From NCBI GenBank assembly GCA_965238005.1, contig OZ250165.1, forward strand, positions 3,296,001 to 3,360,000: 64,000 bases of DNA. Reading direction: 5' to 3'. Source of the DNA: Longimicrobiales bacterium (lineage in GTDB: Bacteria > Gemmatimonadota > Gemmatimonadetes > Longimicrobiales > Gaopeijiaceae). A program made the position numbers and the translations under genes. The notes below the pieces were generated by a model. The model was not told the DNA's origin, ran no database searches, and saw nothing but the letters and a program-made list of their open reading frames with translations. Positions 34,479-60,844 of this stretch are shown here, piece by piece; position 1 is the stretch's first letter; each line of letters begins with the position of its first letter.

Positions 34479-35669
<1,191 letters not shown>

Positions 35670-38086: not shown

Positions 38087-38557
38087 CTACCAGCGATAGT
38101 GGGCGAACGCCTTGTTCGCCTCCGCCATCCGGTGCGTGTCGTCCTTTTTCTTGATAGTCGCGCCCTCTCCCCGGCTCGCAGCCAGGAACTCGTACGCGAG
38201 TCGCTCACCCATCGTCTTCTCCCCGCGACTGCGGGCGAAGCTGATGAGCCAGCGGCTCGCAAGTGCGGCCCGACGCTCGGGCCGGACCTCGATGGGAACC
38301 TGGTACGTGGCACCACCGACGCGCCGGCTCTTCACCTCCAGAGCGGGCTTCGCGTTGGTGAGCGCCTGCGTGAAGATGTTCAGGCCTGGCTGGCCGGAAC
38401 GCTCCTCGCAGATCTCCAGAGCTCCGTAGAATATCTTCTCTGCCAGGGACTTCTTCCCGCCGACCATGAGGTTGTTGATGAACTTCGTCACCTCGGCCGA
38501 ATCATACTTCGGATCTGGGATGAGCTCCCGGCGGACTGCCCTGCTGCGACGACTCAT
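38087..38557 (-). CDS. rpsG: 30S ribosomal protein uS7
   Basis: [24 protein letters not shown]. Confidence 0.98.
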
Positions 38558-38567
38558 ACCCTATCCG

Positions 38568-38939
38568 CTACTTGGGTCTCTTGGCGCCGTACTTCGACCG
38601 ACCCTGGCGCCGATCACCGACACCGGAGGCATCCAGGGTCCCCCGGACGACGTGGTACCGCACTCCGGGCAAGTCCTTTACCCGTCCACCTCGAATGAGC
38701 ACGATCGAGTGCTCCTGGAGGTTGTGTCCTTCCCCACCGATATATGACGTCACCTCGTACCCGTTGGTCAGCCGCACCCTTGCCACCTTTCGAAGAGCCG
38801 AATTGGGCTTCTTGGGGGTGGTGGTATACACCCGGGTGCAGACCCCTCGCTTCTGAGGGTTCTTCTGCAACGCAGGGGACTTGTTCTTCTTCTGATGCTC
38901 GCGCCGTCCCTTGCGAACGAGTTGGTTGATCGTAGGCAT
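38568..38939 (-). CDS. rpsL: 30S ribosomal protein uS12
   Basis: [29 protein letters not shown]. Confidence 0.99.
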
Positions 38940-39061
38940 GTCAGCCCAGGTTCATTTCGTCAAAAAAACGCGCTTGCTAACGCGCTTTCAAAGCGCGGGT
39001 CCTAGCGCGGTTTCGTGTAGGAGCCGCCGACGCTTCGGGGCGTCCGTTGCAAAGACTAGAA

Positions 39062-39090
39062 AAGTTAAAAGAGGCTCGGGGGGGTGTCAA
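39062..39090 (-). promoter_or_regulatory. sigma70-type promoter of the str operon
   Basis: TTGACA-17 nt-TAACTT, about 120 nt upstream of rpsL. Confidence 0.75.
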
Positions 39091-39310
39091 CGGGGTGTTC
39101 CGCCCCGAAAACCGGCTTCGGCCGGGGCATTTTTTGGGGGGGGGGGGGGGGGTGAGGTGCCCCGCCATCGCTCGAAGCGATCCCATGAGCCTCCGGCGCA
39201 GTGTCAGGCCCCGGAGATGTCCTTCCGCCGGTGAGGTCCGGCCCAGGAGGACTCCATTGTCTGAATGGTTATCAGGGGAGTGGGGATCGCGCATCAAGCA
39301 TTCGGCCTTC

Positions 39311-40483
39311 CTACTCCCTATTCTCTACTCCCTTTCTTCCGCCGCCTATAGCTACCGGAGTTCCCCACCCCCCCACTGGACGCAAGGATCGCTGTCGGAC
39401 CAGCGTCGGCACCTGTGTGATGAAGTGCGCCGTTCGCAAGACACACTCCCACAGTTGAAACGGCAATCTGGGCAGTTCATTGAACGGCCCTCCGACGCCT
39501 ACCGTAGCCTGTATCGGATTGGGCCAACGGAGACGAATTGCTTTTAGCAGATGGGCGGGGTGCCGGAAGGAGTACGCCATCGACGGAGTATCCATATAAT
39601 GCTCCTCGATCGACCACTGGCGGAGCACTGAGGGAAGGAGCCATCGGGGCAGGTGTCTGGCCCTCTCCGCCGTCGGAATGCCGTCCAGGCGGGCCCCGAG
39701 AAGCTGGTGGGCCAGACACACGGTGGATGCCACCCAATCCGCGCGCCGCCGGTCTCCCCGCAGTAGATACTCCCAATCAAAATCCTCGGGCAGAGATTCC
39801 AGCACGACGGCGATGTCGCACAGCCACAGAGGGCGGAAGGCCCCATGGCCCAACATGTGTATGCACATGTAGCGGAGATGATCTTCGGGTCCCAATATCC
39901 GCACGTCGACGTCGCCCAGCAGTACCTGCTGGGAACGCTCGTAGACATCATCCAGCGAAGGGCGGTGGAGCTGGGGCAGACCCTTGTGCAAATCGACTAC
40001 GCCCGTCTCGGCCGCCGGAGTGGCAAGTGCAGCCGCCGCGACCGAATGCTGTTCCGGCCGAACACACAGGTCGATGTCCCCATAAGGTCGCAGCCCACGT
40101 TCGGGGTAAAGTCGAGCGATTGCCCAGCCCTTGACCAGCAGAGGGTCCACACCGGCTGACTGAAGGAGCGTAATGGCCTGAACGACTTGGCGCTCGTGGC
40201 GGGCAGCCTGGAGAGTGTAAAGGCGGTACGCCTGCCGAAGTTCGTGAGCGGCGGCGGAGATGCGGAACTCGGACGACCGCACCCGCCACCACCCCAAACT
40301 CGCTGCTCCGGTCCCGAGAAGGAGCGGCGTGACCTCGGCCAGCGCGCTAGGAGAGAGAGACAAGGGTGGTGGGTTATTGCGCCACGAGCCAGCGAGCACC
40401 GATGCTACCAGCTTGCCGCGTGGCCTCAGCTTCTGGTCAGGGTGTAGACGCGGAATGCCGCGATCCCACTGCACGTATTCCAC
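39311..40483 (-). CDS. nucleotidyltransferase family protein (NTP_transf_5-like), copy 2
   Basis: LLVKGWAIARLYP..GLRPYGDIDLCV, VDLH, LWLCDIA. Confidence 0.85.
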   Translation of the reverse strand: MEYVQWDRGIPRLHPDQKLRPRGKLVASVLAGSWRNNPPPLSLSPSALAEVTPLLLGTGAASLGWWRVRSSEFRISAAAHELRQAYRLYTLQAARHERQVVQAITLLQSAGVDPLLVKGWAIARLYPERGLRPYGDIDLCVRPEQHSVAAAALATPAAETGVVDLHKGLPQLHRPSLDDVYERSQQVLLGDVDVRILGPEDHLRYMCIHMLGHGAFRPLWLCDIAVVLESLPEDFDWEYLLRGDRRRADWVASTVCLAHQLLGARLDGIPTAERARHLPRWLLPSVLRQWSIEEHYMDTPSMAYSFRHPAHLLKAIRLRWPNPIQATVGVGGPFNELPRLPFQLWECVLRTAHFITQVPTLVRQRSLRPVGGWGTPVAIGGGRKGVENRE

Positions 40484-40492
40484 CGCGTAGAT

Positions 40493-41029
40493 TCATAGAC
40501 AGTCGTCGTCAACACACTCAGTAGCATCTGCTACACAGCATACACCAGGATCACCGCATATTGGCGAGTTGCCGCAAAAAGGAGGAAAACGGGTTTCGCA
40601 TTGTCCCGCACTAATACACCCAGATGCTTGTGCCGCCGCCACCGGCGCGACGATCGATGCGATCACCGGTAGGAGGATCGAGATCCCTGCAACCGGTCGC
40701 AGGGTTCGTAGCACTTCCCGCCGCGAGTATTGGGCCCTATCTGCCGGCAGTGTCAGCGGCTCACTCGGCAAGCGTGCCCTGCCCAAGCGGTCCAGCGCCA
40801 TCCACACCACCGCTTCGTCGGCCGGAATTTCCAGTTCCTTTTTCAGCAGCGCGGCTACATCGGCCACGCTCGTTCGTCCATCGCAGTGCTGCCAGACCAG
40901 GGCGGCCGTGCGATTCAGGCAACGGGCCTTGTCACGCTTCAGGTCGTATACCAGGGTTTCGTCCTGTAGCTCTTCGACGGCCGGCTCGCCATGCCTCGCA
41001 CGGGGCATCAGCGCGCTTGTCGTTTCCAT
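40493..41029 (-). CDS. PqqD/RRE-domain protein fused to a Tat-like signal and an 8-Cys peptide, copy 2
   Basis: ETLVYD..CLNRTAALVWQHCDGRTSV (RRE), SRREVLR + hydrophobic stretch + AAAQ, 44-aa Cys-rich tail. Confidence 0.85.
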   Translation of the reverse strand: METTSALMPRARHGEPAVEELQDETLVYDLKRDKARCLNRTAALVWQHCDGRTSVADVAALLKKELEIPADEAVVWMALDRLGRARLPSEPLTLPADRAQYSRREVLRTLRPVAGISILLPVIASIVAPVAAAQASGCISAGQCETRFPPFCGNSPICGDPGVCCVADATECVDDDCL

Positions 41030-41118
41030 CGGTATCTCATTCCGAATCGATGGCGCGTGCTGACACTACCACGATTCCCGCGATGCGCACAAGCCACAAC
41101 TCGTCCCGAGCTACCCGT

Positions 41119-41925
41119 TCACGAGCCTCGGCCCGCCTGTTCCGTCAACCGGCCTAGGAGGACTTCGGCGACTTCGGCGGCCTCACCGCGCGCGCCCTTC
41201 ATCACCGTCGCCTCGGCCACGGTCGAGCTCAGCGTCGCGAAAACCCGCTCCGGATCACGTCTGGCGGGGACGGTGTGGTTCAAGAGCTCCAGCACCGCCC
41301 GCCCAGGCGAAAGCGGGCGCGGTCGCCAGCGTACACCGGGCCGGTAGCTGGTCTCAACCACCAAACCTACCGGGAGCGGCCTGACACCGGTTTTCCCGCC
41401 CAAAGCTTCCGGGCGGATCTTCTTCGGGCGCCCACCTCCGTTCTGCCGCATCGACAAAGCCTTGGGATACGGATGCACCCGACCATGCTTGTCAAGAACG
41501 GCGTATTCATCTGAGTAGTACGTCGCCCCCGCTTCGACCAAGGCCTTGATCAGAGTGGACTTGCCGGTCATCGTGCGCCCCGGGACGACGATGGCCCTGC
41601 CACGCCAGCCCACGACGCCGGCGTGGACAAAAACCCTGCGGCGGGCATGATCCGCGATGTGTATCTGCATGTGCCCTTCGAGGGCATCCAGTGCCTCGTC
41701 CGTGTCCTTCGTTCGTGCCAACCCTCGCGCGCCCACATACAGAACGTTGAAACGGCGACGGTTGGAGCCGACCTTGGTGCCGCTGGCTATCAGCGAATAC
41801 AAAAAATCCACGCGGGGGCCGCGAGCCGGCTTCACATCCGGCGGAAGCACTCCTTCAATCCGATCCAGGATCTCCGGGCTGCTCACCCGGATCCCAATAC
41901 GTACTCCGTGGGAGACGAACGCCAT
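41119..41925 (-). CDS. HPr-kinase-related P-loop kinase, copy 2
   Basis: VHAGVVGWRGRAIVVPGRTMTGKSTL...YYSDE. Confidence 0.82.
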   Translation of the reverse strand: MAFVSHGVRIGIRVSSPEILDRIEGVLPPDVKPARGPRVDFLYSLIASGTKVGSNRRRFNVLYVGARGLARTKDTDEALDALEGHMQIHIADHARRRVFVHAGVVGWRGRAIVVPGRTMTGKSTLIKALVEAGATYYSDEYAVLDKHGRVHPYPKALSMRQNGGGRPKKIRPEALGGKTGVRPLPVGLVVETSYRPGVRWRPRPLSPGRAVLELLNHTVPARRDPERVFATLSSTVAEATVMKGARGEAAEVAEVLLGRLTEQAGRGS

Positions 41926-42465
41926 CCCTGCCGCCCACCCAAGGCGGTCGATTTTCTTTTGTCAGGTAGATCGCCACACCAAGACCATATCGTCAGCGTC
42001 GCGCAAGTACGGTCGAGATCCATTGTGCTGTTTCATCGGCAATTCGTCGCTCAAGGGGTTGTCTGAGAAGGAGTCGTGCGGTCAGGGTGCATGCACAAAG
42101 ATAGGCCCACGAGCCAAAACCAGGGAGATTTAGTTACGCAACGTCACCTTCAAAGGCGACGCTCCGAGGCAAAGCCGCGTTTACGCGGCGAGGCCGTGGA
42201 GCGAGCGTCGATCCACCGCGCCCCCAATCACCTTCCCGCCAACGCCCTCCCGCCACAACGATTGAGTTGCAGACCGTCACAGCACGCATGATCCGAGGCG
42301 CGGCCGCGGACCTCCCCGCACCCAAGTATCCTCCCGCCAATGCCCAACAACCGGCATGCCAAAAAGCCGCGCGGGACGGAGGATTTCGGGGGGTCGAACG
42401 ATGAGCAGGCGAGCGCGGATTGCGCAACGAGCATTCGGCCTTCCTGCTCGTTGACGCCCTACTCC

Positions 42466-43608
42466 CTATTTTTTTCGGTTTCTGGCAGCCGGAGGTCCCC
42501 ACCCCCCCATAGGGCGGAGGGATCTCTCGCGGACCCGCGTCGGCACGTGCCTGATGAAGTACGCCGTCCGCAAGACGCATTCCAACAGTTGAAACGGCAA
42601 CCTGGGCAGTTCATTAAACGGCCCTCCCACGCGTACCGTGGCCTGTATCGGATTGGGCCAACGGAGGCGAAGCGCTTTGAACAACCGGGTGCGGTGCTTG
42701 AGGAACGACCCCATCAACGCATCATCCATGTAGTGCTCCTCCATCGACCACTGGGTGAGCACTGCCGGAACAAGCCACCGAGGCAAACGCCTGGTCCTCT
42801 CGCCCGTCGGAATGCCGTCCAAACGGGCCCCCAGGAGCTGGTGGGCCAGACACAGTGTGGACGCTACCCAATCTGCGGGCCGCGGATCTCCCCGAAACAA
42901 GTACTCCCAATCGAAATCCTCGGGCAGAGTTTCTAGTACAACGGCGACGTCGCACAGCCACAGAGCGCGGTGCAGGCCGTGCTGGAGCATGTGTACGCAC
43001 ATGTAACGCAGATGATCTTCAGGCCCCAAGATCCGCACGTCGACGTCACCGAGCGGTACAAGCTGGGATCGCCGGTAGACATCGTCCAACGAAGGGCGGT
43101 GGAGCTGCGGCAGGCCGGCATGCAGATCGACCGCGACCTTTCCGGTGGTCGGAGCAGCGAGTGCAGCCGCCGCTTGCGCATACTGTTCCGGCCGAACGCA
43201 TATGTCGATATCTCCAGAGGGCCGCAGCCCACGTTCGGAGTACAGACGAGCGACTGCCCAGCCCTTGACCAACAGCGGCTCCACCCCCGCTGACCGAAGT
43301 AACGTGATGGCCCGGACAATCAACCGCTCCTGGCGACCAGCCGCGAGAGTGTAATGGCGGTATGCCTGCCGAAGTTCATGTGCGACGGTCGAGGCGCGTA
43401 GCTCCGACGACCGCACCCGCCACCACGCGAGGCCCCCAGCGCCCCAGCCGAGCAGTAGGGGTGCGACCTCGGTGAGGGCGGCGGACGTCAGAGACGAAGG
43501 CCAAGGTGGTGAGGGCGTGCGCCAAGCGCCGACGAGGGCCGCGGCCACCAACTTACCGCGTCGCCTCGGATCGCTGGCGGCGCCCGGATCCGGAAACGAC
43601 GACGTCAC
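42466..43608 (-). CDS. nucleotidyltransferase family protein (NTP_transf_5-like), copy 1
   Basis: LLVKGWAVARLY..GLRPSGDIDICV; GTG start at 43608 follows GGAGA (ORF track extends to 43632). Confidence 0.85.
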   Translation of the reverse strand: MTSSFPDPGAASDPRRRGKLVAAALVGAWRTPSPPWPSSLTSAALTEVAPLLLGWGAGGLAWWRVRSSELRASTVAHELRQAYRHYTLAAGRQERLIVRAITLLRSAGVEPLLVKGWAVARLYSERGLRPSGDIDICVRPEQYAQAAAALAAPTTGKVAVDLHAGLPQLHRPSLDDVYRRSQLVPLGDVDVRILGPEDHLRYMCVHMLQHGLHRALWLCDVAVVLETLPEDFDWEYLFRGDPRPADWVASTLCLAHQLLGARLDGIPTGERTRRLPRWLVPAVLTQWSMEEHYMDDALMGSFLKHRTRLFKALRLRWPNPIQATVRVGGPFNELPRLPFQLLECVLRTAYFIRHVPTRVRERSLRPMGGWGPPAARNRKK

Positions 43609-43612
43609 CGCC

Positions 43613-44764
43613 CTATCTCCGCTTCCTTCCACGCTTCAGGATCACCTGGTCCATCCGGGCTCCCAGACTGTTGAACAGCACGGTTCGATCCGAGGAGCTC
43701 ATGGTGGCTGGAACCGCCTGCTCGAGGACCGTGAGCGTCTGCGGGCTGCTCTTGAATGCACGCCAGAAGCGATGGGCGGCGAAAACCAGCTCGGGAACGC
43801 CGAACGGTGGCGATTTCAGGTTGGCTTTTCTAGAGATCTCGAGGGGTTCGTCGCCCCGAGCCAATAGGCGGAGGACGGGGGAAAGATCGGTCAGAATCCG
43901 ATGGGCTCCTTGTAACGAGGGCGGCTCAGGCGACAGCGCGCATGTGTGTCTCAGAATACGCTCCGCCAACGCCAGCGCAGCGAGCATTGCTTCCGAGCTC
44001 AAGCTGAGCAGGCCAAGCCGGAAGGGTGATGCCAGCGCCAGCAACAAATCGTCTGTCGCGTCGCGGGCGACGGGGCGGGACGGTAGATCCAGGCCGAGAA
44101 GCCGAGTCCCACGATCTACGCGGGAACCCAGCGCGGCACGATCGGCCGACGCATCGTTCAGCACGTCGCCGAAGCGGGCATGGTCCAGGGCCTGGGAACA
44201 CACATCCCGGAAGGTCGATTCCCTCGCCACAACGGCTCGCGGACCGAGATCGGGGTGTAAACGGGTAGGTGTCAGAAACGACTTCACGTATCCCGGATCC
44301 AGCATTCGGCTGTCACGGATGGCGGCCTCGAGGTCGGCGTGGGTACCCTCAACGGCCCCGGGCGATGCCGGGACCTGCAAACGCAGGGGACACAGGAAGT
44401 GCGGGCTGACGGCAACCGCGGCCCCGATCCGGGTGAACACGTTGAACGGAAAAGTCACACAAACCCCCGGCTTGGTGCCCTTTCCGTGCTCCTTTTCAAT
44501 ACGGCACTGGAGGTCGGCGTCGAGGAAAAAGCACCCCCCGGAGGGCGTGGCGATATTGACCTGATCGGCTTGACGGCTAGTGGACACGCTGCCGAGGGCT
44601 GGATAGATCTGTAGCAGCTTACGCATCTCACGCTCGAGGCTGCCGCCGAAGCCATCCCCGCGGCAGCACAGTGCCGTGCACTCCGCACAGACGTAGTGAT
44701 AAACGCCGTCCGGAAACGCGAAGAAGAACGAGCCGTCCTGACTATCCGTGGTTGGTGCGGGCAC
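43613..44764 (-). CDS. YkgJ/CxxCxxCC-type cysteine-cluster (putative Fe-S/Zn) protein with long C-terminal domain
   Basis: CAECTALCC...CFFLDADLQCRIE...KPGVCVTFPF; GGAGGAG RBS. Confidence 0.8.
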   Translation of the reverse strand: MPAPTTDSQDGSFFFAFPDGVYHYVCAECTALCCRGDGFGGSLEREMRKLLQIYPALGSVSTSRQADQVNIATPSGGCFFLDADLQCRIEKEHGKGTKPGVCVTFPFNVFTRIGAAVAVSPHFLCPLRLQVPASPGAVEGTHADLEAAIRDSRMLDPGYVKSFLTPTRLHPDLGPRAVVARESTFRDVCSQALDHARFGDVLNDASADRAALGSRVDRGTRLLGLDLPSRPVARDATDDLLLALASPFRLGLLSLSSEAMLAALALAERILRHTCALSPEPPSLQGAHRILTDLSPVLRLLARGDEPLEISRKANLKSPPFGVPELVFAAHRFWRAFKSSPQTLTVLEQAVPATMSSSDRTVLFNSLGARMDQVILKRGRKRR

Positions 44765-44904
44765 GCCCTGCTCCTCCGCTCATTTCATGTGGCGCCGATC
44801 GTTGATGGTGACCGCCAGGGTGGGGGGAAGCGCGCCGGAGTGGGCCTAACGTACAGTCTTACCGCGGTTGGCTGGACATGCCCATTCGCGAAATGTCGTG
44901 ATCT

Positions 44905-45453
44905 TCAGCAACCACATTTCTCCTGGGCCTGGGAGTTACCCATGCACTTTCCATTACAACACATTCTCTTGTCGCAAGTGGTTCCGGTGTTGTTGATGCA
45001 TGGGGTGCAAACCGGCATCCCTCCACAAGCATTTTGGGGCAGGCACGAGGTTTGTGCCGCCGCCAACGGCGCGACGATCGAATCGATCACCGGCAGGAGC
45101 AGCGAGATCCCGGCTGCCCGTCGCAGAGTTCGTAGCATCTCCCGACGCGAGTATCGGGCCCGATCCGCCGGCAGTGCCACCGGCTCACTCAGCAAGTGTG
45201 CCCGGTCCAAGCGGTCCAGCGCCATCCACACCACTGCCTCGTCGGCCGGGAGCTCCAGTTCCTTTTTCAGCAGCGCGGCCGTATCGGCCACGCTCGTTCG
45301 CCCATTGCAGCACCGCCACACGAGGGCGGCCGTGTGATTCAGGCAAGAGGCCTTGTGGCGCTCCAGGTCGTAGATCAGGATTTCGTCCTGCAAGTCCTCG
45401 ACAACCAGCTCGTCTTGCCTCGCCCGGGGCATCAGCGCTCTTGTGGTTTCCAT
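44905..45453 (-). CDS. PqqD/RRE-domain protein fused to a Tat-like signal and a 10-Cys peptide, copy 1
   Basis: Start METTR after GGAGTGAGGT; EILIYD..CLNHTAALVWRCCNG; SRREMLR; AAAQ; 48-aa Cys-rich tail. Confidence 0.87.
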   Translation of the reverse strand: METTRALMPRARQDELVVEDLQDEILIYDLERHKASCLNHTAALVWRCCNGRTSVADTAALLKKELELPADEAVVWMALDRLDRAHLLSEPVALPADRARYSRREMLRTLRRAAGISLLLPVIDSIVAPLAAAQTSCLPQNACGGMPVCTPCINNTGTTCDKRMCCNGKCMGNSQAQEKCGC

Positions 45454-45550
45454 AGGTACCTCACTCCAAAATCGCTGGCGCGTGCTTACACTACCATTAT
45501 TCACGATTCATATGTGGCGCACAAGCCAAAACTCGTCCCGAGCTACCGCT

Positions 45551-46393
45551 TCACGAACCTCGGCCCGCCTGTTTCGTTAACCGGCCCAAGAGGACTTCGG
45601 CGATTCCCCCGGCCTCACCACGCGCTCCCTTTAGCACCATCGCCTCGGCCGTGGCCGCACGCAGCGTCGCGAAGACCCGCTCCGGATCGCGTCTGGCGGG
45701 GACGGTGTGGGCCAAGAGTTCCATCACCGCCCGCCCAGGCGAAAGCCGGCGCGGTCGCCACCGCACACCCTCCCGGTAGCTTGTCGCGACGACCAATCCT
45801 ACCGGGAGCGGTCTGACACCGGTTGTCCCGCCCAAAGCTTCCGGGAGGATCTTCTTCGGGCGTCCACCCCCGTTCTGCCGCATCGACAAAGGCTTCGGAT
45901 AGGGATGCACCCGACCACGCTCATCGAGCACGGCGTATTCATCCGAGTAGTACGTCGCCCCCGCCTCGACCAATGCCTTGATCAGGGTCGTCTTGCCGCT
46001 CATGCTACGCCCCGGGATGACGATCGCCCTGCCACGCCAGCCCACGACGCCGGCATGGACAAACACCCTGCGGCGGGCATGTTCGGCGACGTATAGATGC
46101 AAGTGGTTTTCGAGGTCTTCCAGTACCTGGTCCGTGTCCTTCGTTCGTACCAGCCTTACCGCGCCCGCATACAGAATATTGAAACGGCGAACGTTGGAGC
46201 CGACCTTGGTTCCGCTGGCTATCAGCGAATACAAACCACCGACGCGGGGCCCGCGAGCCGGCTTGGCATGCGGTGGAAGCACTCCTTCAATCCGATCCAT
46301 GATCTCCGGACTACTCACCCGGATCCCGATGCGTAAGCCGTAGGAGACGAACGCGATCCCCGCCGCCCACCCGAGGCGGTCGATTTTCTCCAT
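45551..46393 (-). CDS. HPr-kinase-related P-loop kinase, copy 1
   Basis: VHAGVVGWRGRAIVIPGRSMSGKTTL...YYSDE. Confidence 0.85.
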   Translation of the reverse strand: MEKIDRLGWAAGIAFVSYGLRIGIRVSSPEIMDRIEGVLPPHAKPARGPRVGGLYSLIASGTKVGSNVRRFNILYAGAVRLVRTKDTDQVLEDLENHLHLYVAEHARRRVFVHAGVVGWRGRAIVIPGRSMSGKTTLIKALVEAGATYYSDEYAVLDERGRVHPYPKPLSMRQNGGGRPKKILPEALGGTTGVRPLPVGLVVATSYREGVRWRPRRLSPGRAVMELLAHTVPARRDPERVFATLRAATAEAMVLKGARGEAGGIAEVLLGRLTKQAGRGS

Positions 46394-46643
46394 TCAGGTG
46401 GACCCCGGCACCAACACCATCTCGTCGACGTCGCACATCTGCGGTGGAGATCCTCTGTGCTGTTTCATGGGGCAATTACACCACCGCGATTGACGAGCCG
46501 ATCGCAGCGCCATTAGAAGGCCGGCGCGACACTGTAAGTCAATGCATCATAACAAGTTCAGTCAGAAGGAACCAGTCGCCCCAGCACCCTGAAAGCCCGT
46601 TCGTACAGCACGTCCTAACCACACTGGACGCCCGATCACACCG

Positions 46644-46683
46644 CAAAAATATGAGGGGGAGTGCCCATCGGGCACTCCCCCTC
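46644..46683 (-). terminator. intrinsic terminator after rpoC
   Basis: 14-bp stem gagggggagtgccc-atc-gggcactccccctc followed by ATATTTTTG on the minus strand. Confidence 0.8.
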
Positions 46684-46702
46684 GCTCACTCAACCGGCTT
46701 GC

Positions 46703-46793
46703 CGAAGCGGGTCGTCGGCTCCCCGGAGCGACGATCTGCGGCGCAGCCGTAGAGCGTAGCGTCGGCGCGCAGAGGAGCCGACGACCCGCTTCG
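46703..46793. repeat. 20-bp perfect inverted repeat just past the rpoC stop
   Basis: cgaagcgggtcgtcggctcc ... ggagccgacgacccgcttcg with a 51-nt loop. Confidence 0.8.
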
Positions 46794-46795
46794 AC

Positions 46796-49700
46796 CTAGT
46801 CGGCCGTGACCTCTTCGAGCCCGATCAGCTCGCCCGGATCCACCAACGGAAGAATCTCCTCCTCGTAGAACGATTGCTCGACCATGAACTCCACGTCCTG
46901 ATACCGATGGACACCGGTTCCGGCTGGGATGAGGTGACCGATGATGATGTTCTCCTTGAGCCCCTTCAGGTCGTCCCTGGCGCCCCGGACTGCGGCGTCC
47001 GTAAGCACGCGGGTCGTCTCCTGGAAAGAGGCGGCCGAGATGAAGGACTCGGTCGTGAGGCTCGCCTTGGTGATCCCCAGCAGGAGCGGCTCGGAGCGAG
47101 CCGGCTTCTTGCCGTCTTTGATCGATCTGCGGTTCACCTCGCGGAATTCGACCCGGTCGACGTTCTCCCCTTCCAGCAGCGCCGTCTCACCGGGATCGGT
47201 GATGCGGACCTTCTGGAGCATCTGCCGGACGATCACACCGATGTGCTTGTCGTTGATTTGCACGCCCTGCAGTCGGTACACCTCCTGGATCCCGTTGAGC
47301 AGGTACTCCTGCACGGCCCGGGGGCCACGGATCTTCAGGATGTCGTGCGGGTTGATGGGACCCTCGGACAGACGGTCACCCGCCCGCACCCGGTCACCCT
47401 CGTGCACCCGCATGTGCTTGCCGACGGGCACCGGGTAAGCCCTCTCGTCCTTCTCCCCGGTGTCCGGCGTCACGATCACTTCGCGCTTGCCTCGTTTGAT
47501 GTCGCCGAAACGTACCTCGCCGTCGATCTCCGTGATGACCGCCGGGTCCTTCGGGCGACGCGCCTCGAAGAGCTCAGCAACGCGCGGCAGACCCCCCGTG
47601 ATATCTCGGGTCTTATACACCTCGCGGCTGATCTTGGCGATGGTGTCGCCGGGGTTGATCTTCTCACCGTCCCGGACCGTGAGCTGGGCGCCCATCGGGA
47701 TGATGAACTCCCGGAGCTTCTCGGCCTTCTTCGTGCCCTTCCGAATCTGGATAGTCGGGTGCAGCTTCTTGTCGCGATCCTCGATGATCGTCATCTGGCG
47801 ACGACCCGTGGACTCGTCCAGCTCCTCCCTCATGGTCTGCTCGTCGACGATGTCGACGAACTTCACGACCCCGCCGGAGTCGGCCACGATGGGCTCGGAA
47901 TACGGGTCCCAGCTGAAGAGCAGGTCGCCGGACTCGATCACCTGCCCCTCTTCAGCCGCGAGCGTCGCGCCGTACGGAACGCTCAGGCGACTACGGACCT
48001 GGCCCTCCGCCGTCTTGAGCAGGATCTGCCCCTCGCGTGAGGTCACGATCAGCTCGTCGTTGGGCGTAAGAACCGTGGTGACGCGCTCCAGAGCCGCCAC
48101 TCCGTCGATCTTCGAGCGACGCTGGGTCTGAGCCGCGATCCGGGCCGCTGTTCCTCCGATATGGAACGTCCGCAGCGTGAGCTGCGTCCCGGGCTCGCCG
48201 ATCGACTGGGCCGCCAGAATCCCGACGGCCTCACCGATGTCGACCAGCTGCATGGTGGCCAGGTTCCGGCCATAGCACATGTGGCAGAGGCCCCTCTTGG
48301 ACTCACACGTCAGCACGGACCGGATCTTCACGACCTGAATCCCTGCAGCTTCGATGGCGTCCGCGGTCTCCTCTTCGATGAGATGGCCGGCCTGGACCAG
48401 CAACTCTCCGTCGATGGGATCGTAGACGTCCTCGAGGGCCACGTTGCCCACGATTCGGTCCATGAGAGGCTCGATGATGTCCTCACCCTCCTTGAGGGCA
48501 GTCATCTCGAGGCCGAGGATGGTCCCGCAGTCTTCCCCGGTGATGGTCACGTCCTGGGCGACGTCGACGAGGCGGCGCGTGAGGTACCCTGCGTCCGCCG
48601 TCTTCAACGCCGTGTCGGCGAGACCCTTCCGCGCTCCGTGGGTAGAGATGAAGTACTCCACCACCGACAGCCCCTCGCGGAAGTTGGACTTGATGGGGCT
48701 CTCGATGATCTCGCCGATGCCACCCGTGAGCTTCTTTTGGGGCTTGGCCATGAGGCCACGCATCCCGGCGAGCTGCCGCATCTGGTCGCGGTTACCTCGC
48801 GCCCCGGAGGTCATCATCATGTAGACGGGGTTGAAGCCCTCCTGAGAACGCTCCAGCCGCTTGACCATGGCGTCGGCTACGTCGTTGTTGGCGTGGGTCC
48901 AGGTGTCGATGACCTTGTTGTACCGCTCACCGTTGGAGATGTAGCCGCTGGAGTACGCCTTCTGAAAGCGCTTGACCTGCTCGCCGGCTTCGTCCAGGAT
49001 CTGCGGCTTCTCATCCGGCACATCGAGGTCGGCGATACCCACGCTGATCCCACCCATGGTGGCGTACCGGAAGCCGAAGTCCTTCAGATAGTCCAAGAAC
49101 TCGGTCGTACGGGTCAGCCCCACGGTGGTGAAACAGTCGAAGACGAGGTCTCCCAGCTCCTTCTTGCCGAACGTCTGGTTGAAGAAGCCCAGCTCCGCCG
49201 GGATGATGGAGTTGAACAGCACGCGTCCCGCCGTGCACCTGAGCCACTTGCCGTCGTGGTCTCCGTCCTCCTCGGGATGCTTCGGCACCCAGTACCAGCA
49301 CGGGCTGTTGAACTGGAGCCAACCGCCCTCCAGCCCCATCTCCACCTCTCCGAACGTGGAGAAGTGGGGAACGTCGGCGTAGATCTCGTCAAGGCCCTCT
49401 TCGGCAGCGGCCCGAGCGTTCTTGGGCGCCTTGCTGTTGTACGCCACCTCCTCCAGGTCCGAGATCTCCAGGGCCGGCTTGGTGAGGTAGTACCCACCGA
49501 TGACCATGTCCTGGGACGGCGCCGTGACCGGTCGGCCGTGGGATGGCAGCAGGATGTTGTTGCTCGATAGCATGAGCACCCGTGCCTCGAGCTGCGCCTC
49601 GAACGACAGAGGTACGTGAACCGCCATCTGGTCCCCGTCGAAGTCGGCGTTGAACGCCGCGCACACGAGCGGGTGGATCCGGATGGCCTTCCCCTCCACG

Positions 49701-51091
49701 AGCACGGGCTCGAACGCCTGGATGCCCAGACGGTGGAGCGTCGGGGCTCGGTTCAGCAGCACCGGGTGGTCTTTGATGATGTCCTCGAGGACTTCATAGA
49801 CCTTCGGATCGTCACGCTCGACGATCTTCTTGGCTCTCTTGACCGTCTCGGCCTCGCCCCGCTTCTCGAGCTCGTGGATGATGAACGGCTTGAACAGCTC
49901 CACGGCCATGGCCTTGGGCAGGCCGCACTGGTGCAGTTTGAGCTCGGGACCGACCACGATGACCGAGCGACCAGAGTAGTCCACCCGCTTCCCGAGCAGG
50001 TTCTGGCGGAAGCGTCCCTGCTTGCCCTTTAGCATGTCGGACAGTGACTTGAGGGGACGCTTGCCCCGACCGCGAATGGCCTTCGAACGCCGCCCGTTGT
50101 CGAAGAGCGCGTCGACGGCCTCCTGAAGCATGCGCTTCTCATTCCGGAGGATGACCTCCGGGGCGCGCATGTCGATGAGCTTCTTGAGCCGGTTATTCCG
50201 GTTGATGACCCGACGGTACAGGTCGTTCAGGTCGGAGGTGGCGAACCGTCCCCCGTCCAGCGGAACCAGAGGCCGAAGGTCGGGCGGAATCACCGGAATC
50301 ACATCCATGACCATCCACTCGGGCCGGTTCCGTTCGCCCACGCTGCCGCCCGAGTTGCGCAAGGCGTCGACCACCTTGAGCCGCTTCAGCTTCTTCTTCT
50401 TACGGTGCTGTGACGTCTCCGTGGCGATCTCGATCCGCAGCCAATGTGCCAGGCGATCGAGGCCTTTGCCGTCGGAGTTGCGGTCGTTGATCCGGCGCAC
50501 CGGGCTGTCGAGCATCTTGAGAAGCGTGCGAACCGCCTCGGCACCGATCTCGGCCTTGAACCTCTCGTCGCCCTTGTCTCGCGACTTCACCCGCAGATCG
50601 TAGTACTCGTCCTCGTCCAGGAGCTCGAGGAACTCGACATCCTGCTTGCCGGGGTGCGTCACCACGTACGAGGCGTAGTAGATCACCTTCTCCAGATCCC
50701 GCAGCGTCATCCCGACCAGGTACCCCAGCTGGCTAGGTAGCGTCTTGAAGAACCAGATGTGACAGATGGGCACTGCCAACTCGATGTGGCCCATGCGCTC
50801 GCGGCGAACCTTGGAGAGCGTGACCTCGACCCCGCAGCGATCACAGACGTGCCCCCGGAACCGGATCCGCTTGAACTTCCCGCAGTGACACTCCCAGTCC
50901 TTCACCGGACCGAAGATGCGCTCACAGAACAGTCCGTCCCGCTCCGGCTTGAAGGACCGGTAGTTGATGGTCTCGGGCTTAGTCACCTCACCGAACGACC
51001 AGGAGCGGATCTCCTCGGGAGCGGCGATTCTGATCTGGATGAAGTCGAAGTCCGAGGAGCGCTGCTCTCTCGACCTGGGAAAATCGATCAT
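46796..51091 (-). CDS. rpoC: RNA polymerase beta' subunit
   Basis: NADFDGD catalytic motif, N-terminal Zn finger. Confidence 0.99.
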
Positions 51092-59331: not shown

Positions 59332-60522
<1,191 letters not shown>

Positions 60523-60663: not shown

Positions 60664-60737
60664 AGCGGGAGACGGGACTCGAACCCGCGACCCTCAGCTT
60701 GGAAGGCTGATGCTCTAGCCAACTGAGCTACTCCCGC
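60664..60737 (-). tRNA. tRNA-Gly(TCC)
   Basis: GCGGGAG...CCTTCCAAG...GGTTCGAGTCC...CTCCCGCT. Confidence 0.95.
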
Positions 60738-60762
60738 AAAGCAACCGTCCGTTGGACTCAAG

Positions 60763-60844
60763 TGGTGGGGGTAGGATTCGAACCTACGAAGGCTAAGCCA
60801 GCAGATTTACAGTCTGCCCCGTTTGACCGCTTCGGTACCCCACC
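60763..60844 (-). tRNA. tRNA-Tyr(GTA)
   Basis: GGTGGGG...GACTGTAAATC, long variable arm, GGTTCGAATCC...CCCCACCA. Confidence 0.95.

Follow-up and report, generated by a model that had tools for sequence, protein, structure and literature searches.

Duplicated Kinase, PqqD-Fusion and Nucleotidyltransferase Genes between rpoC and rpsL of a Longimicrobiales Bacterium: A Candidate RiPP-Like Pathway

Gene Content of the rpoC-rpsL Interval

In a Longimicrobiales bacterium of the Gemmatimonadota (assembly GCA_965238005.1, contig OZ250165.1), the interval between rpoC and rpsL holds two copies of a gene cassette that encodes a kinase, a protein in which a PqqD-like recognition element of the kind found in pathways for peptides that are made on ribosomes and modified after translation (RiPPs) is fused to a Cys-rich tail, and a nucleotidyltransferase (NTase). 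The cassettes lie within a stretch of 64,000 nucleotides (nt; positions 3,296,001 to 3,360,000 of the contig), hereafter the window, whose numbering is used throughout; in the list of open reading frames (ORFs) with translations, the interval from rpoC to rpsL contains seven ORFs, all on the minus strand. An earlier interpretation made from the letters alone (the sequence-only reading) had proposed the order kinase, recognition element with peptide, Cys-cluster protein (in one copy) and NTase, duplicated between rpoC and rpsL, and all seven ORFs are indeed present in that order.

Copy B, on the rpoC side, begins with kinase B (45551-46393), an HPr-kinase-superfamily P-loop kinase of 280 amino acids (aa), followed by PqqD-fusion protein B (44905-45453; 182 aa), whose listed ORF is longer (44905-45504) and whose homology starts at its Met18. 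Next come a FliB/YkgJ-like Cys-cluster protein of 383 aa (43613-44764), which overlaps the following gene by 20 nt, and NTase B (42466-43632; 388 aa). Copy A consists of kinase A (listed ORF 41119-41925, 268 aa from an ATG at 41925, with a region of homology that reaches 41961), PqqD-fusion protein A (40493-41029; 178 aa) and NTase A (39311-40483; 390 aa). Between the copies the kinases are 82% identical, the NTases 72% and the PqqD-fusion proteins 65%, the divergence of the last being concentrated in the C-terminal tail; the two cassettes are a genuine but old duplication. Pfam and NCBIfam scans of the seven genes detected no lasso cyclase, protease, radical S-adenosylmethionine enzyme, YcaO, LanM or ABC exporter, in agreement with the sequence-only reading. 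Two features are new relative to that reading: an internal twin-arginine-type signal in the PqqD-fusion protein, and two short conserved ORFs, one before each kinase.

The PqqD-Fusion Protein

The N-terminal domain of both fusion proteins (approximately residues 8-88) matches PqqD (PF05402) at 31.4 and 36.0 bits, above the Pfam cut-off of 23.4. In the AlphaFold2 (AF2) model of fusion protein A, the predicted local distance difference test (pLDDT) is 77-84 in the Cys-rich core, 55-71 in the RiPP recognition element (RRE) and below 50 over residues 83-135; the RRE is modeled as three strands (17-20, 24-29, and 34-39) followed by three helices (40-47, 55-66, and 72-83), a winged-helix order. The ten top Foldseek matches of this domain are all RRE-bearing proteins (E-values 2e-3 to 9e-2), headed by lasso B1 proteins with bound leader peptide (5V1U, 5V1V and 6JX3, TbiB1 among them; E-values 2e-3 to 4e-3; target template-modeling scores 0.53-0.59), with CteB, PqqD and SkfB ranked below them. 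The assignment of an RRE made in the sequence-only reading is therefore supported by family and, on a model of moderate confidence with E-values of 2e-3 or weaker, also by fold. Neither the precursor profile nor kinase A or NTase A had a meaningful match among PDB sequences. Neither PqqD protein of the window matches TIGR04353 (PqqD family peptide chaperone) of NCBIfam at E<=0.1; the PqqD domains of relatives reach 22.8 and 16.9 bits, below the cut-off of 35.

Between the RRE and the Cys-rich part lies a segment (approximately residues 102-133; nt 45055-45150 in copy B and 40631-40726 in copy A) laid out as [ST]RR, a hydrophobic stretch of Ala, Leu and Val, a Pro at -6 and AxA. Signals of the twin-arginine translocation (Tat) system consist of the motif S/T-R-R-x-hydrophobic-hydrophobic-basic, a hydrophobic region and AxA, in keeping with the consensus rules for signal peptidase. 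Conservation of the fusion protein was assessed in an alignment of 26 close relatives and in another of 69 diverse relatives. The latter has only seven invariant columns, two of which are R103 and R104; the residue that precedes them is Ser or Thr in 69 of 69 sequences, a basic residue (Arg or Lys) occupies position 108 (+5) in 62, and Pro129 is kept in 67, followed by A-x-A with Ala-rich -3 and -1 positions. Among the 150 best database representatives, [ST]RR occurs beyond residue 60 in 137, and RR is visible in 12 of the other 13. TatC is encoded in the genome (209.3 bits). Conserved Ser/Thr residues that are candidate sites of modification fall at positions 102 (100% of the 69 sequences), 125 (97%) and 136 (96%), the last at +2 after AxA. 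A lipoprotein reading of the '[ST]-C' junction, to which the lipobox rule was applied, was rejected: the residue at -1 is often Thr, and many cores have no initial Cys.

The core, which comprises the last 40-50 residues, is hypervariable on a fixed Cys frame. It has 8 Cys in copy A (class 1; nt 40493-40630 with the stop codon) and 10 in copy B (class 2, with Lys; nt 44905-45054 including the stop codon), and both proteins end in Cys or in Cys plus one residue, not in Ser. Among the 26 close relatives mean pairwise identity is 84% in the RRE and 85% in the linker and signal, but falls to 45% in the core and to 32% in the core once Cys is set aside, so that the Cys-rich tail follows the pattern of a conserved leader and a hypervariable core that is typical of a precursor. 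This contrast, together with tandem precursor genes beside a single enzyme set in two relatives' loci (three genes in L010 and two in L013), supports the view in the sequence-only reading that the RRE is fused to the apparent substrate.

Among 1.84 billion cluster representatives the precursor profile matches 491 at E<=1e-30; with the threshold loosened to 1e-10 and 1e-3 the number rises to 4332 and 6884, the weakest of which are probably plain PqqD proteins; the precursor design is common in soil bacteria. A regular expression predicted cores in 137 of the 150 best representatives. Of these 137 predicted cores, 119 have an even number of Cys, most often 6 (46 cores), 8 (38) or 10 (19), while 5 have an odd number and 13 have no Cys; because these counts are even, disulfides would be expected to form outside the cytoplasm. 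The spacing C-C-CC-C-C occurs in 32 of the 137, and Ser or Thr is found among the first three core residues in 114. In some family members (P0191, P0235, P0240, and P0268) the Cys-rich core gives way to a low-complexity tail that lacks Cys and abounds in Gly, Asn, Lys, or Pro; the leader design would therefore carry more than one kind of cargo.

Kinase, Nucleotidyltransferase and Cys-Cluster Protein

In NCBIfam both kinases match HprK-related kinase A (TIGR04352) best, kinase B at 53.9 bits and kinase A at 55.6 against a cut-off of 200, and the match is partial, covering about 88 residues. In an alignment of 39 sequences K122, D139, and D145 are invariant and H101 is nearly so. A His-Lys-Asp-Asp motif is described as conserved in the kinases that tailor lasso peptides, enzymes whose target is the C-terminal Ser of a still linear precursor (PMC9266682); the set in the cassette kinases matches this motif by order only, without alignment to PadeK.

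The NTases belong to NTP_transf_5 (PF14907; 100.2 bits for NTase B and 102.8 for NTase A, cut-off 31.2), and the carboxylates of their GDIDL...D motif (D136, D138, and D164) are invariant in 44 sequences. The AF2 model of NTase A (pLDDT 87.3) has as its nearest solved folds the pol-beta-type structure 5UVD (E-value 8.8e-4), MenT1, ANT(2'')-Ia and LnuA. According to the pseudomycoidin study (PMC6993621), PsmK phosphorylates and PsmN then adds a hexose to the phosphorylated C-terminal Ser, for which an Asp pair of PsmN is needed; ANT(2'') entries are those that its authors named for PsmN. With catalytic residues intact, both enzymes of the cassette look active.

For the 383-aa protein the sequence-only reading had given a CxxCxxCC motif; the real spacing is C-x2-C-x3-CC (VCAECTALCC). 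It has no Pfam match even at E<=10 and a match to FliB (NF038110) at E 0.023 (14.2 bits, cut-off 85), and its nearest clusters in the ESM Atlas, ranked by a language model, carry PF03692 or FliB_C (scores 0.97-0.91), so its relationship to YkgJ and FliB is a lead. Genes of this type accompany 10-Cys, Lys-containing class-2 cores in the window and in L010, L012, and L013. Mean Lys content is 4.4 per core with a FliB-like gene nearby (n=10) vs. 0.49 without one (n=88); the ten are mostly close kin, L103 has the gene and no Lys, and L014 and L016 are Lys-rich without it, which leaves a possible link between FliB-like genes and Lys-rich cores as a further lead.

Conservation and Setting of the Cassette in Genomes and Metagenomes

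Seventeen genome loci were compared, 16 of them titled as Gemmatimonadota or its orders and one as Acidobacteriota. A kinase gene lies upstream of the precursor gene in all 17 and an intact NTase gene downstream in 16, L006 having only NTase fragments. Placement between rpoC and rpsL, as in the window, recurs in L005, L007, L008, L009, L010, L014, and L015, and in L013 the cassette stands directly before rpsL. A metagenome scan started from a 13-sequence alignment gave 606 confirmed relatives, of which 80 loci were examined; the scan picks relatives with AHCLN[QRP]TAA and the set is biased accordingly. Enzymes were detected with hidden Markov models iterated from the window's own proteins, by which divergent enzymes may be missed.

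Counting was confined to well-flanked loci, those with 3 kb or more of sequence to either side, which are 15 of the 17 in genomes and 17 of the 80 in metagenomes. Kinase and NTase are both found in 14 of the 15 well-flanked genome loci, the other having NTase fragments; the well-flanked metagenome loci have both enzymes in 4 cases, NTase only in 9, kinase only in 1 and neither in 3, which amounts to an NTase in 13 and a kinase in 5. The association of kinase, PqqD-fusion and NTase that the sequence-only reading had supposed is upheld by these counts, and because the gene set recurs in 17 genome loci and 80 metagenome loci it is more than a chance arrangement. Neither enzyme is obligatory, because both are undetected in some well-flanked metagenome loci; the NTase is the steadier partner and the kinase is lineage-specific and dispensable in many relatives. 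No sigma factor or regulator is conserved near the cassettes in the genome and metagenome neighborhoods examined.

Several relatives differ in what surrounds these genes. The gap between kinase and precursor is an insertion site, with transposase-like ORFs in L007 (8600-9781 and 10644-11401) and L014 (9015-9968) and, in L008 (5676-9803), a four-gene block on the opposite strand for prepilin-like or large secreted proteins; the transposase-like and prepilin-like names were given by eye from translations. L012 (13162-16185, minus strand) carries a second, divergent cassette back to back with the first, with a 6-Cys Lys-rich precursor core, its own NTase, its own FliB-like gene and no kinase. In the NTase-only loci L070 (2494-5462) and L085 (3845-5398), ORFs that by eye are epimerase-like and like WecA/MraY polyprenyl-phosphate sugar-phosphate transferases stand before the precursor gene, a possible hint at sugar-phosphate chemistry.

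In the window itself, the insert is bounded upstream by rpoC (46796-51091) and a strong terminator-like hairpin (46653-46683, minus strand; 14 pairs, 11 of them G-C, followed by a T run), where the sequence-only reading had placed an rpoC terminator, and downstream by rpsL (38568-38939, minus strand), with rpsG and fusA beyond. The rpsL promoter that had also been claimed was not detected by a consensus scan, and no Rfam family matches 38500-47000 at E<=1. Elsewhere in the window, two EF-Tu-like ORFs of 396 aa (34479-35669 and 59332-60522, both on the minus strand) give sub-threshold SelB matches and are an ordinary tuf duplication, and tRNA-like matches occur at about 60665-60844.

The Short Open Reading Frame and the TGA Junction before the Kinase

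Each kinase gene is preceded on the minus strand, in its own frame, by a short ORF of 24 codons plus TGA. Short ORF B (46394-46468; TGA at 46394-46396; MKQH...DVDEMVLVPGST followed by TGA) abuts the ATG of kinase B, and short ORF A (41962-42036; TGA at 41962-41964; MKQH...DADDMVLVWRST followed by TGA) lies in the frame of kinase A. The C-terminal 12 or so residues are conserved across Gemmatimonadota loci, where nucleotide changes are synonymous and at third positions and one Ser is encoded by TCC in one locus and by AGC in another; in distant loci the short ORF ends in [LMF]PR[LFY][KR]xx[ST][ST]. By eye, the end is S-T, S-S or similar in nearly all loci, the exceptions being L004 (-SA), L027 (-GR) and L058. 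The short ORF is present only beside kinases and never in NTase-only loci.

The stop codon is TGA in all 27 stop-bearing aligned sequences. In most kinases ATG follows it directly, and 117 of the 120 best database homologs begin at that Met (Met-x-Lys-[IL]-[DN]-Arg-Leu-Gly-Trp); the codon after TGA is instead CAG or CAA in the window's copy A (winA), L007, L010, and L016-L018, and ATT in L003. Where no canonical start succeeds the TGA, the next 12-25 codons are still conserved: the 12 codons before the listed start of kinase A (41926-41961; QKKIDRLGWAAG) show homology to the N-terminal end of other kinases and stand directly after TGA with no start codon. There (41926-41964) the ancestral ATG has been lost, TGA being followed by CAA AAG AAA, and an Ile-to-Met change 12 codons on provides the start at 41925; L010 shows the same two changes. 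In three loci the TGA is replaced by a Gly codon (GGA in L019, GGC in L050 and GGC in L088), which makes short ORF and kinase continuous, L019 keeping an internal Met.

A hairpin (CCGCCU-CGGGU-GGGCGG; 46363-46379, minus strand) lies within the first codons of kinase B and begins 14 nt past the TGA; its conserved counterpart in copy A, at about 41931-41947 on the same strand, lies in the 12-codon stretch before the listed ATG of kinase A. Over 27 distinct sequences its six pairs are formed in 96.3% of cells, with one compensatory change from C-G to U-A in three sequences; the support that this lends is limited because the hairpin overlaps the conserved DRLGWA codons.

The genome encodes selenocysteine (Sec) machinery, with SelA, SelB and tRNA-Sec above cut-offs and SelD with one in-frame TGA (GAG-TGA-ASK); these genes lie outside the window (G000:C1:578521-579441; 1509868-1511217, 1993357-1994445, and 1907155-1907247). 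SelA and tRNA-Sec were found in five of five other system-bearing genomes tested, and the L019 genome, with its Gly codon, also has SelA, so it offers no contrast with the TGA carriers. The short ORF is most simply read as a translated upstream peptide that is coupled to the kinase through a stop-start junction.

Proposed Pathway and Alternatives

What has been observed is the anatomy and conservation of the cassette, the co-occurrence of its genes, their classes of fold and the intact catalytic residues; export, cleavage, the modified protein and residue, and the chemistry we infer as follows. The PqqD-fusion protein would be the precursor, with its RRE domain (residues 1 to about 95) staying in the cytoplasm; RRE and signal together would form a 135-residue leader on which the PF14907 NTase and, where present, the HPr-kinase-family kinase dock. 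In the cytoplasm the enzymes would add a phosphate-linked group (phosphate, nucleoside monophosphate or phospho-hexose), most likely at one of the three conserved Ser/Thr positions (136, 125, or 102) and above all at the one beside the signal-peptidase site. The core would then be exported by the Tat system, signal peptidase would cleave at AxA, and the even-numbered Cys would form disulfides outside the cytoplasm; in copy B the FliB/YkgJ-like protein may further modify the Lys-containing class-2 core. The cassette may have descended from a tailoring set for phosphorylated lasso peptides with the same gene order. On this reading, which we regard as an even call, the cassettes form a RiPP-like pathway for Tat-exported, disulfide-rich mini-proteins that are tailored in the cytoplasm before export.

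Several observations weigh against it. The signal is internal, starting at residue 102 behind a folded domain of about 100 residues, which is atypical for Tat; the AF2 model is poor over residues 83-135; and the Tat-signal models of Pfam and NCBIfam match no window protein at E<=0.1, TIGR02811 reaching one relative at a sub-threshold 16.3 bits (cut-off 48.45). Where relatives of this kinase have been characterized, their target is a Ser at the C-terminus; the last residue of the precursors is Cys or the one just after a Cys, and it is the short ORF that ends in S-T or S-S. The scheme of the sequence-only reading, in which a Ser/Thr of the Cys-rich peptide is first phosphorylated and then nucleotidylated, is at this stage a hypothesis. 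Loss of the +2 Ser/Thr tracks loss of the NTase weakly: it is seen in 3 of 9 ORFs without an NTase and, where an NTase is present, in 6 of 46, two of which are parsing artefacts. The system is patchily distributed in the phylum (24 of 301 sampled genomes at E<=1e-5, about half of them matching over the full length), and in the 17 well-flanked metagenome loci the kinase is undetected in 12, the NTase in 4 and both in 3.

The substrate of both enzymes may instead be the short upstream peptide, held by the PqqD domain of the fusion protein acting as a B1-type RRE, with the signal and Cys tail in a separate role, for example as an anchor or second product. We consider this doubtful, although several observations are consistent with it: the order short ORF-kinase-PqqD-NTase is that of psmA-psmK-psmB1-(psmB2)-psmN; the short ORF, found exclusively beside kinases, looks to be under selection at the protein level (synonymous changes, Ser as TCC or AGC); its S-T or S-S end fits the C-terminal-Ser rule of PadeK, PsmK and PsmN better than the Cys-rich precursor does; in two or three lineages (L050 and L088; L019) it is fused in frame to the kinase; and the top structural matches of the RRE are leader-bound lasso B1 proteins. 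Outside the Gemmatimonadota its [LMF]PR[LFY][KR] contains a P-x-L pattern, which resembles the lasso leader motif YxxPxL. The NTase, however, cannot depend on the short peptide, because 9 of the 17 well-flanked metagenome loci pair NTase and PqqD-fusion without kinase or short ORF. A substrate fused to its own kinase, as in L050 and L088, would be odd for a released product, and some 12 conserved residues behind a start codon of variable position would also fit a regulatory leader ORF or a coupling device. The hypervariable, even-Cys core is also left unexplained. Many regulators share a topology in which a cytoplasmic N-terminal domain is followed by a single hydrophobic segment and then by a small domain on the outside, and the fusion protein could on that pattern be an uncleaved single-pass membrane protein, RRE inside and disulfide domain outside, serving as scaffold, sensor or anti-sigma-like regulator for enzymes that modify something else. 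The internal position of the signal, the lack of a dedicated protease or exporter among the seven genes and the Cys-free tails of 13 of 137 relatives would all suit such a protein, but the invariant RR with its Ser/Thr and the kept Pro(-6) and AxA in 69 diverse members exceed what an anchor needs, a hypervariable external part on a fixed scaffold in tandem copies is typical of secreted effectors or precursors and not of sensors, and no sigma factor or regulator is conserved nearby; we think it quite unlikely.

The TGA junction admits a further explanation, in which the codon is recoded, by selenocysteine insertion or by hairpin-aided programmed readthrough, and at least some of the kinase carries the short peptide as an N-terminal extension. 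The constancy of TGA in the 27 stop-bearing sequences, the conserved codons after TGA in winA, L003, L007, L010, L016, L017, and L018 where no canonical start follows, the paired hairpin 14 nt downstream with its compensatory pair, the continuous ORFs of L019, L050, and L088 through a sense codon, and the Sec machinery of the host and of all five other carriers tested point that way. In selenoprotein families, homologs are expected to have Cys rather than Gly at the Sec position, and TGA is the commonest stop codon in G+C-rich genomes. The aligned residue in the three continuous homologs is Gly, not Cys; TGA is common in such genomes and the loci are related to one another; an ATG right after the TGA is the rule (117 of 120 homologs), which stop-start coupling explains; winA and L010 have gained a Met 12 codons downstream, and L007 is disrupted by insertion sequence elements. 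The hairpin, moreover, overlaps conserved codons and has no Rfam match, and the Gly-codon genome also possesses SelA. Recoding seems to us improbable on balance, and we give as little credence to a bolder combination in which recognition is reversed relative to known RiPP pathways, the substrate bearing the RRE and the enzyme the leader. The short ORF, as a vestigial lasso-type leader (P-x-L, Ser/Thr end) joined to the kinase by hairpin-aided recoding of TGA that was fixed as Gly in three lineages, would then dock the kinase on the RRE of the precursor, and this RRE would keep back the twin-arginine signal of its own chain as long as tailoring goes on, as a built-in export checkpoint for hypervariable knottin-like peptides.

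Novelty and Significance

No prior description of an RRE-fused, Tat-signal, Cys-rich precursor with a PF14907 NTase or HprK-related kinase was found in the literature searched, the scope of which left out subscription journals and supplements, and neither kinases nor nucleotidyltransferases came up in term searches of the accessible text of the two RRE-Finder papers. According to a 2025 survey of RREs, 21% of PF05402 matches exceed a discrete RRE in length yet contain no other domain, which the survey calls an opportunity (PMC12710340). The parts of the cassette are known and their assembly was not found in the searched literature; we file it as a candidate RiPP-like pathway with lasso-type tailoring enzymes.

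If the pathway of Tat-exported, tailored mini-proteins is correct, the bacteria of soil and sediment would hold a very large and unexplored store of disulfide-rich mini-proteins that they secrete, some of the long PqqD-only proteins flagged in PMC12710340 would gain a function, and the poorly understood PF14907 enzymes would gain a natural substrate. In this design, which is absent from the RiPP literature searched, the recognition element resides in the substrate, the general Tat route would replace an exporter of the pathway's own, and dedicated enzymes are limited to an NTase and sometimes a kinase, both otherwise known as decorators of lasso peptides. That the cores are hypervariable while their Cys frames are fixed suggests a part in an arms race, such as that of a toxin, inhibitor or signal, and on the same assumption the cores would be ready-made scaffolds for peptide engineering.

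Comparison with Known Systems

The closest likeness is to the tailoring sets of phosphorylated lasso peptides, represented by paeninodin (PadeK) and pseudomycoidin (PsmA-PsmK-PsmB1-PsmB2-PsmN). With these the cassette shares an HPr-kinase-superfamily kinase with His, Lys, Asp, and Asp, a PF14907-type NTase with the Asp pair needed by PsmN and a fold nearest ANT(2'')-Ia, as reported for PsmN, and a B1-like PqqD/RRE. The gene order is likewise that of psmA-psmK-psmB1-(psmB2)-psmN, the kinase gene following a short ORF whose end is Ser/Thr, and this shared order suggests descent from a lasso tailoring set. Unlike such a set, the cassette has no lasso cyclase, B2 protease or ABC exporter among its genes, its RRE continues into a Tat-type signal and then a hypervariable core rich in Cys, its kinase is dispensable in many relatives, and its short ORF contains no recognizable lasso core. 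The only match in the genome to Transglut_core3 (PF13471, lasso B2-type), at G000:C1:3957718-3957990, is borderline (25.8 bits, cut-off 26) and falls inside a 509-aa frame about 600 kb from the cassette.

In the HPr-rel-A system (TIGR04352 with TIGR04353), too, a PqqD-family protein has as its neighbor a kinase of this superfamily. The cassette kinases, however, score 54-56 bits against the cut-off of 200, the PqqD proteins of the window have no TIGR04353 match at E<=0.1, and in the cassette a signal and a Cys-rich core are added to the PqqD protein. The cassette lies outside the lasso class and outside the HPr-rel-A equivalogs, whose cut-offs it fails.

Bufferins are described, in the available part of the source, as long Cys-containing RiPP precursors with a general export signal and a signal-peptidase cut that need no dedicated exporter (PMC11626156); they resemble the proposed pathway in sending Cys-containing precursors along a general export route, and core hypervariability is not reported for them in that text. 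They are made with MNIO and DUF2063 proteins instead of an NTase and kinase, and, as far as the same text goes, their signal is an N-terminal Sec signal, whereas that of the cassette precursor is internal, of twin-arginine type and placed behind a fused RRE.

Two analogies are more distant. TorD, DmsD, and NapD are chaperones that bind Tat signals, and conotoxins and knottins are disulfide-rich toxins made as prepropeptides. As with those chaperones, a cytoplasmic domain beside a twin-arginine signal could hold the signal until maturation is complete. The window's own cores, with 8 and 10 Cys, differ from conotoxins and knottins, but the precursor genes share with conotoxin genes a conserved pre-pro region and a hypervariable core on a Cys frame, and the C-C-CC-C-C spacing is present in 32 of 137 relatives.

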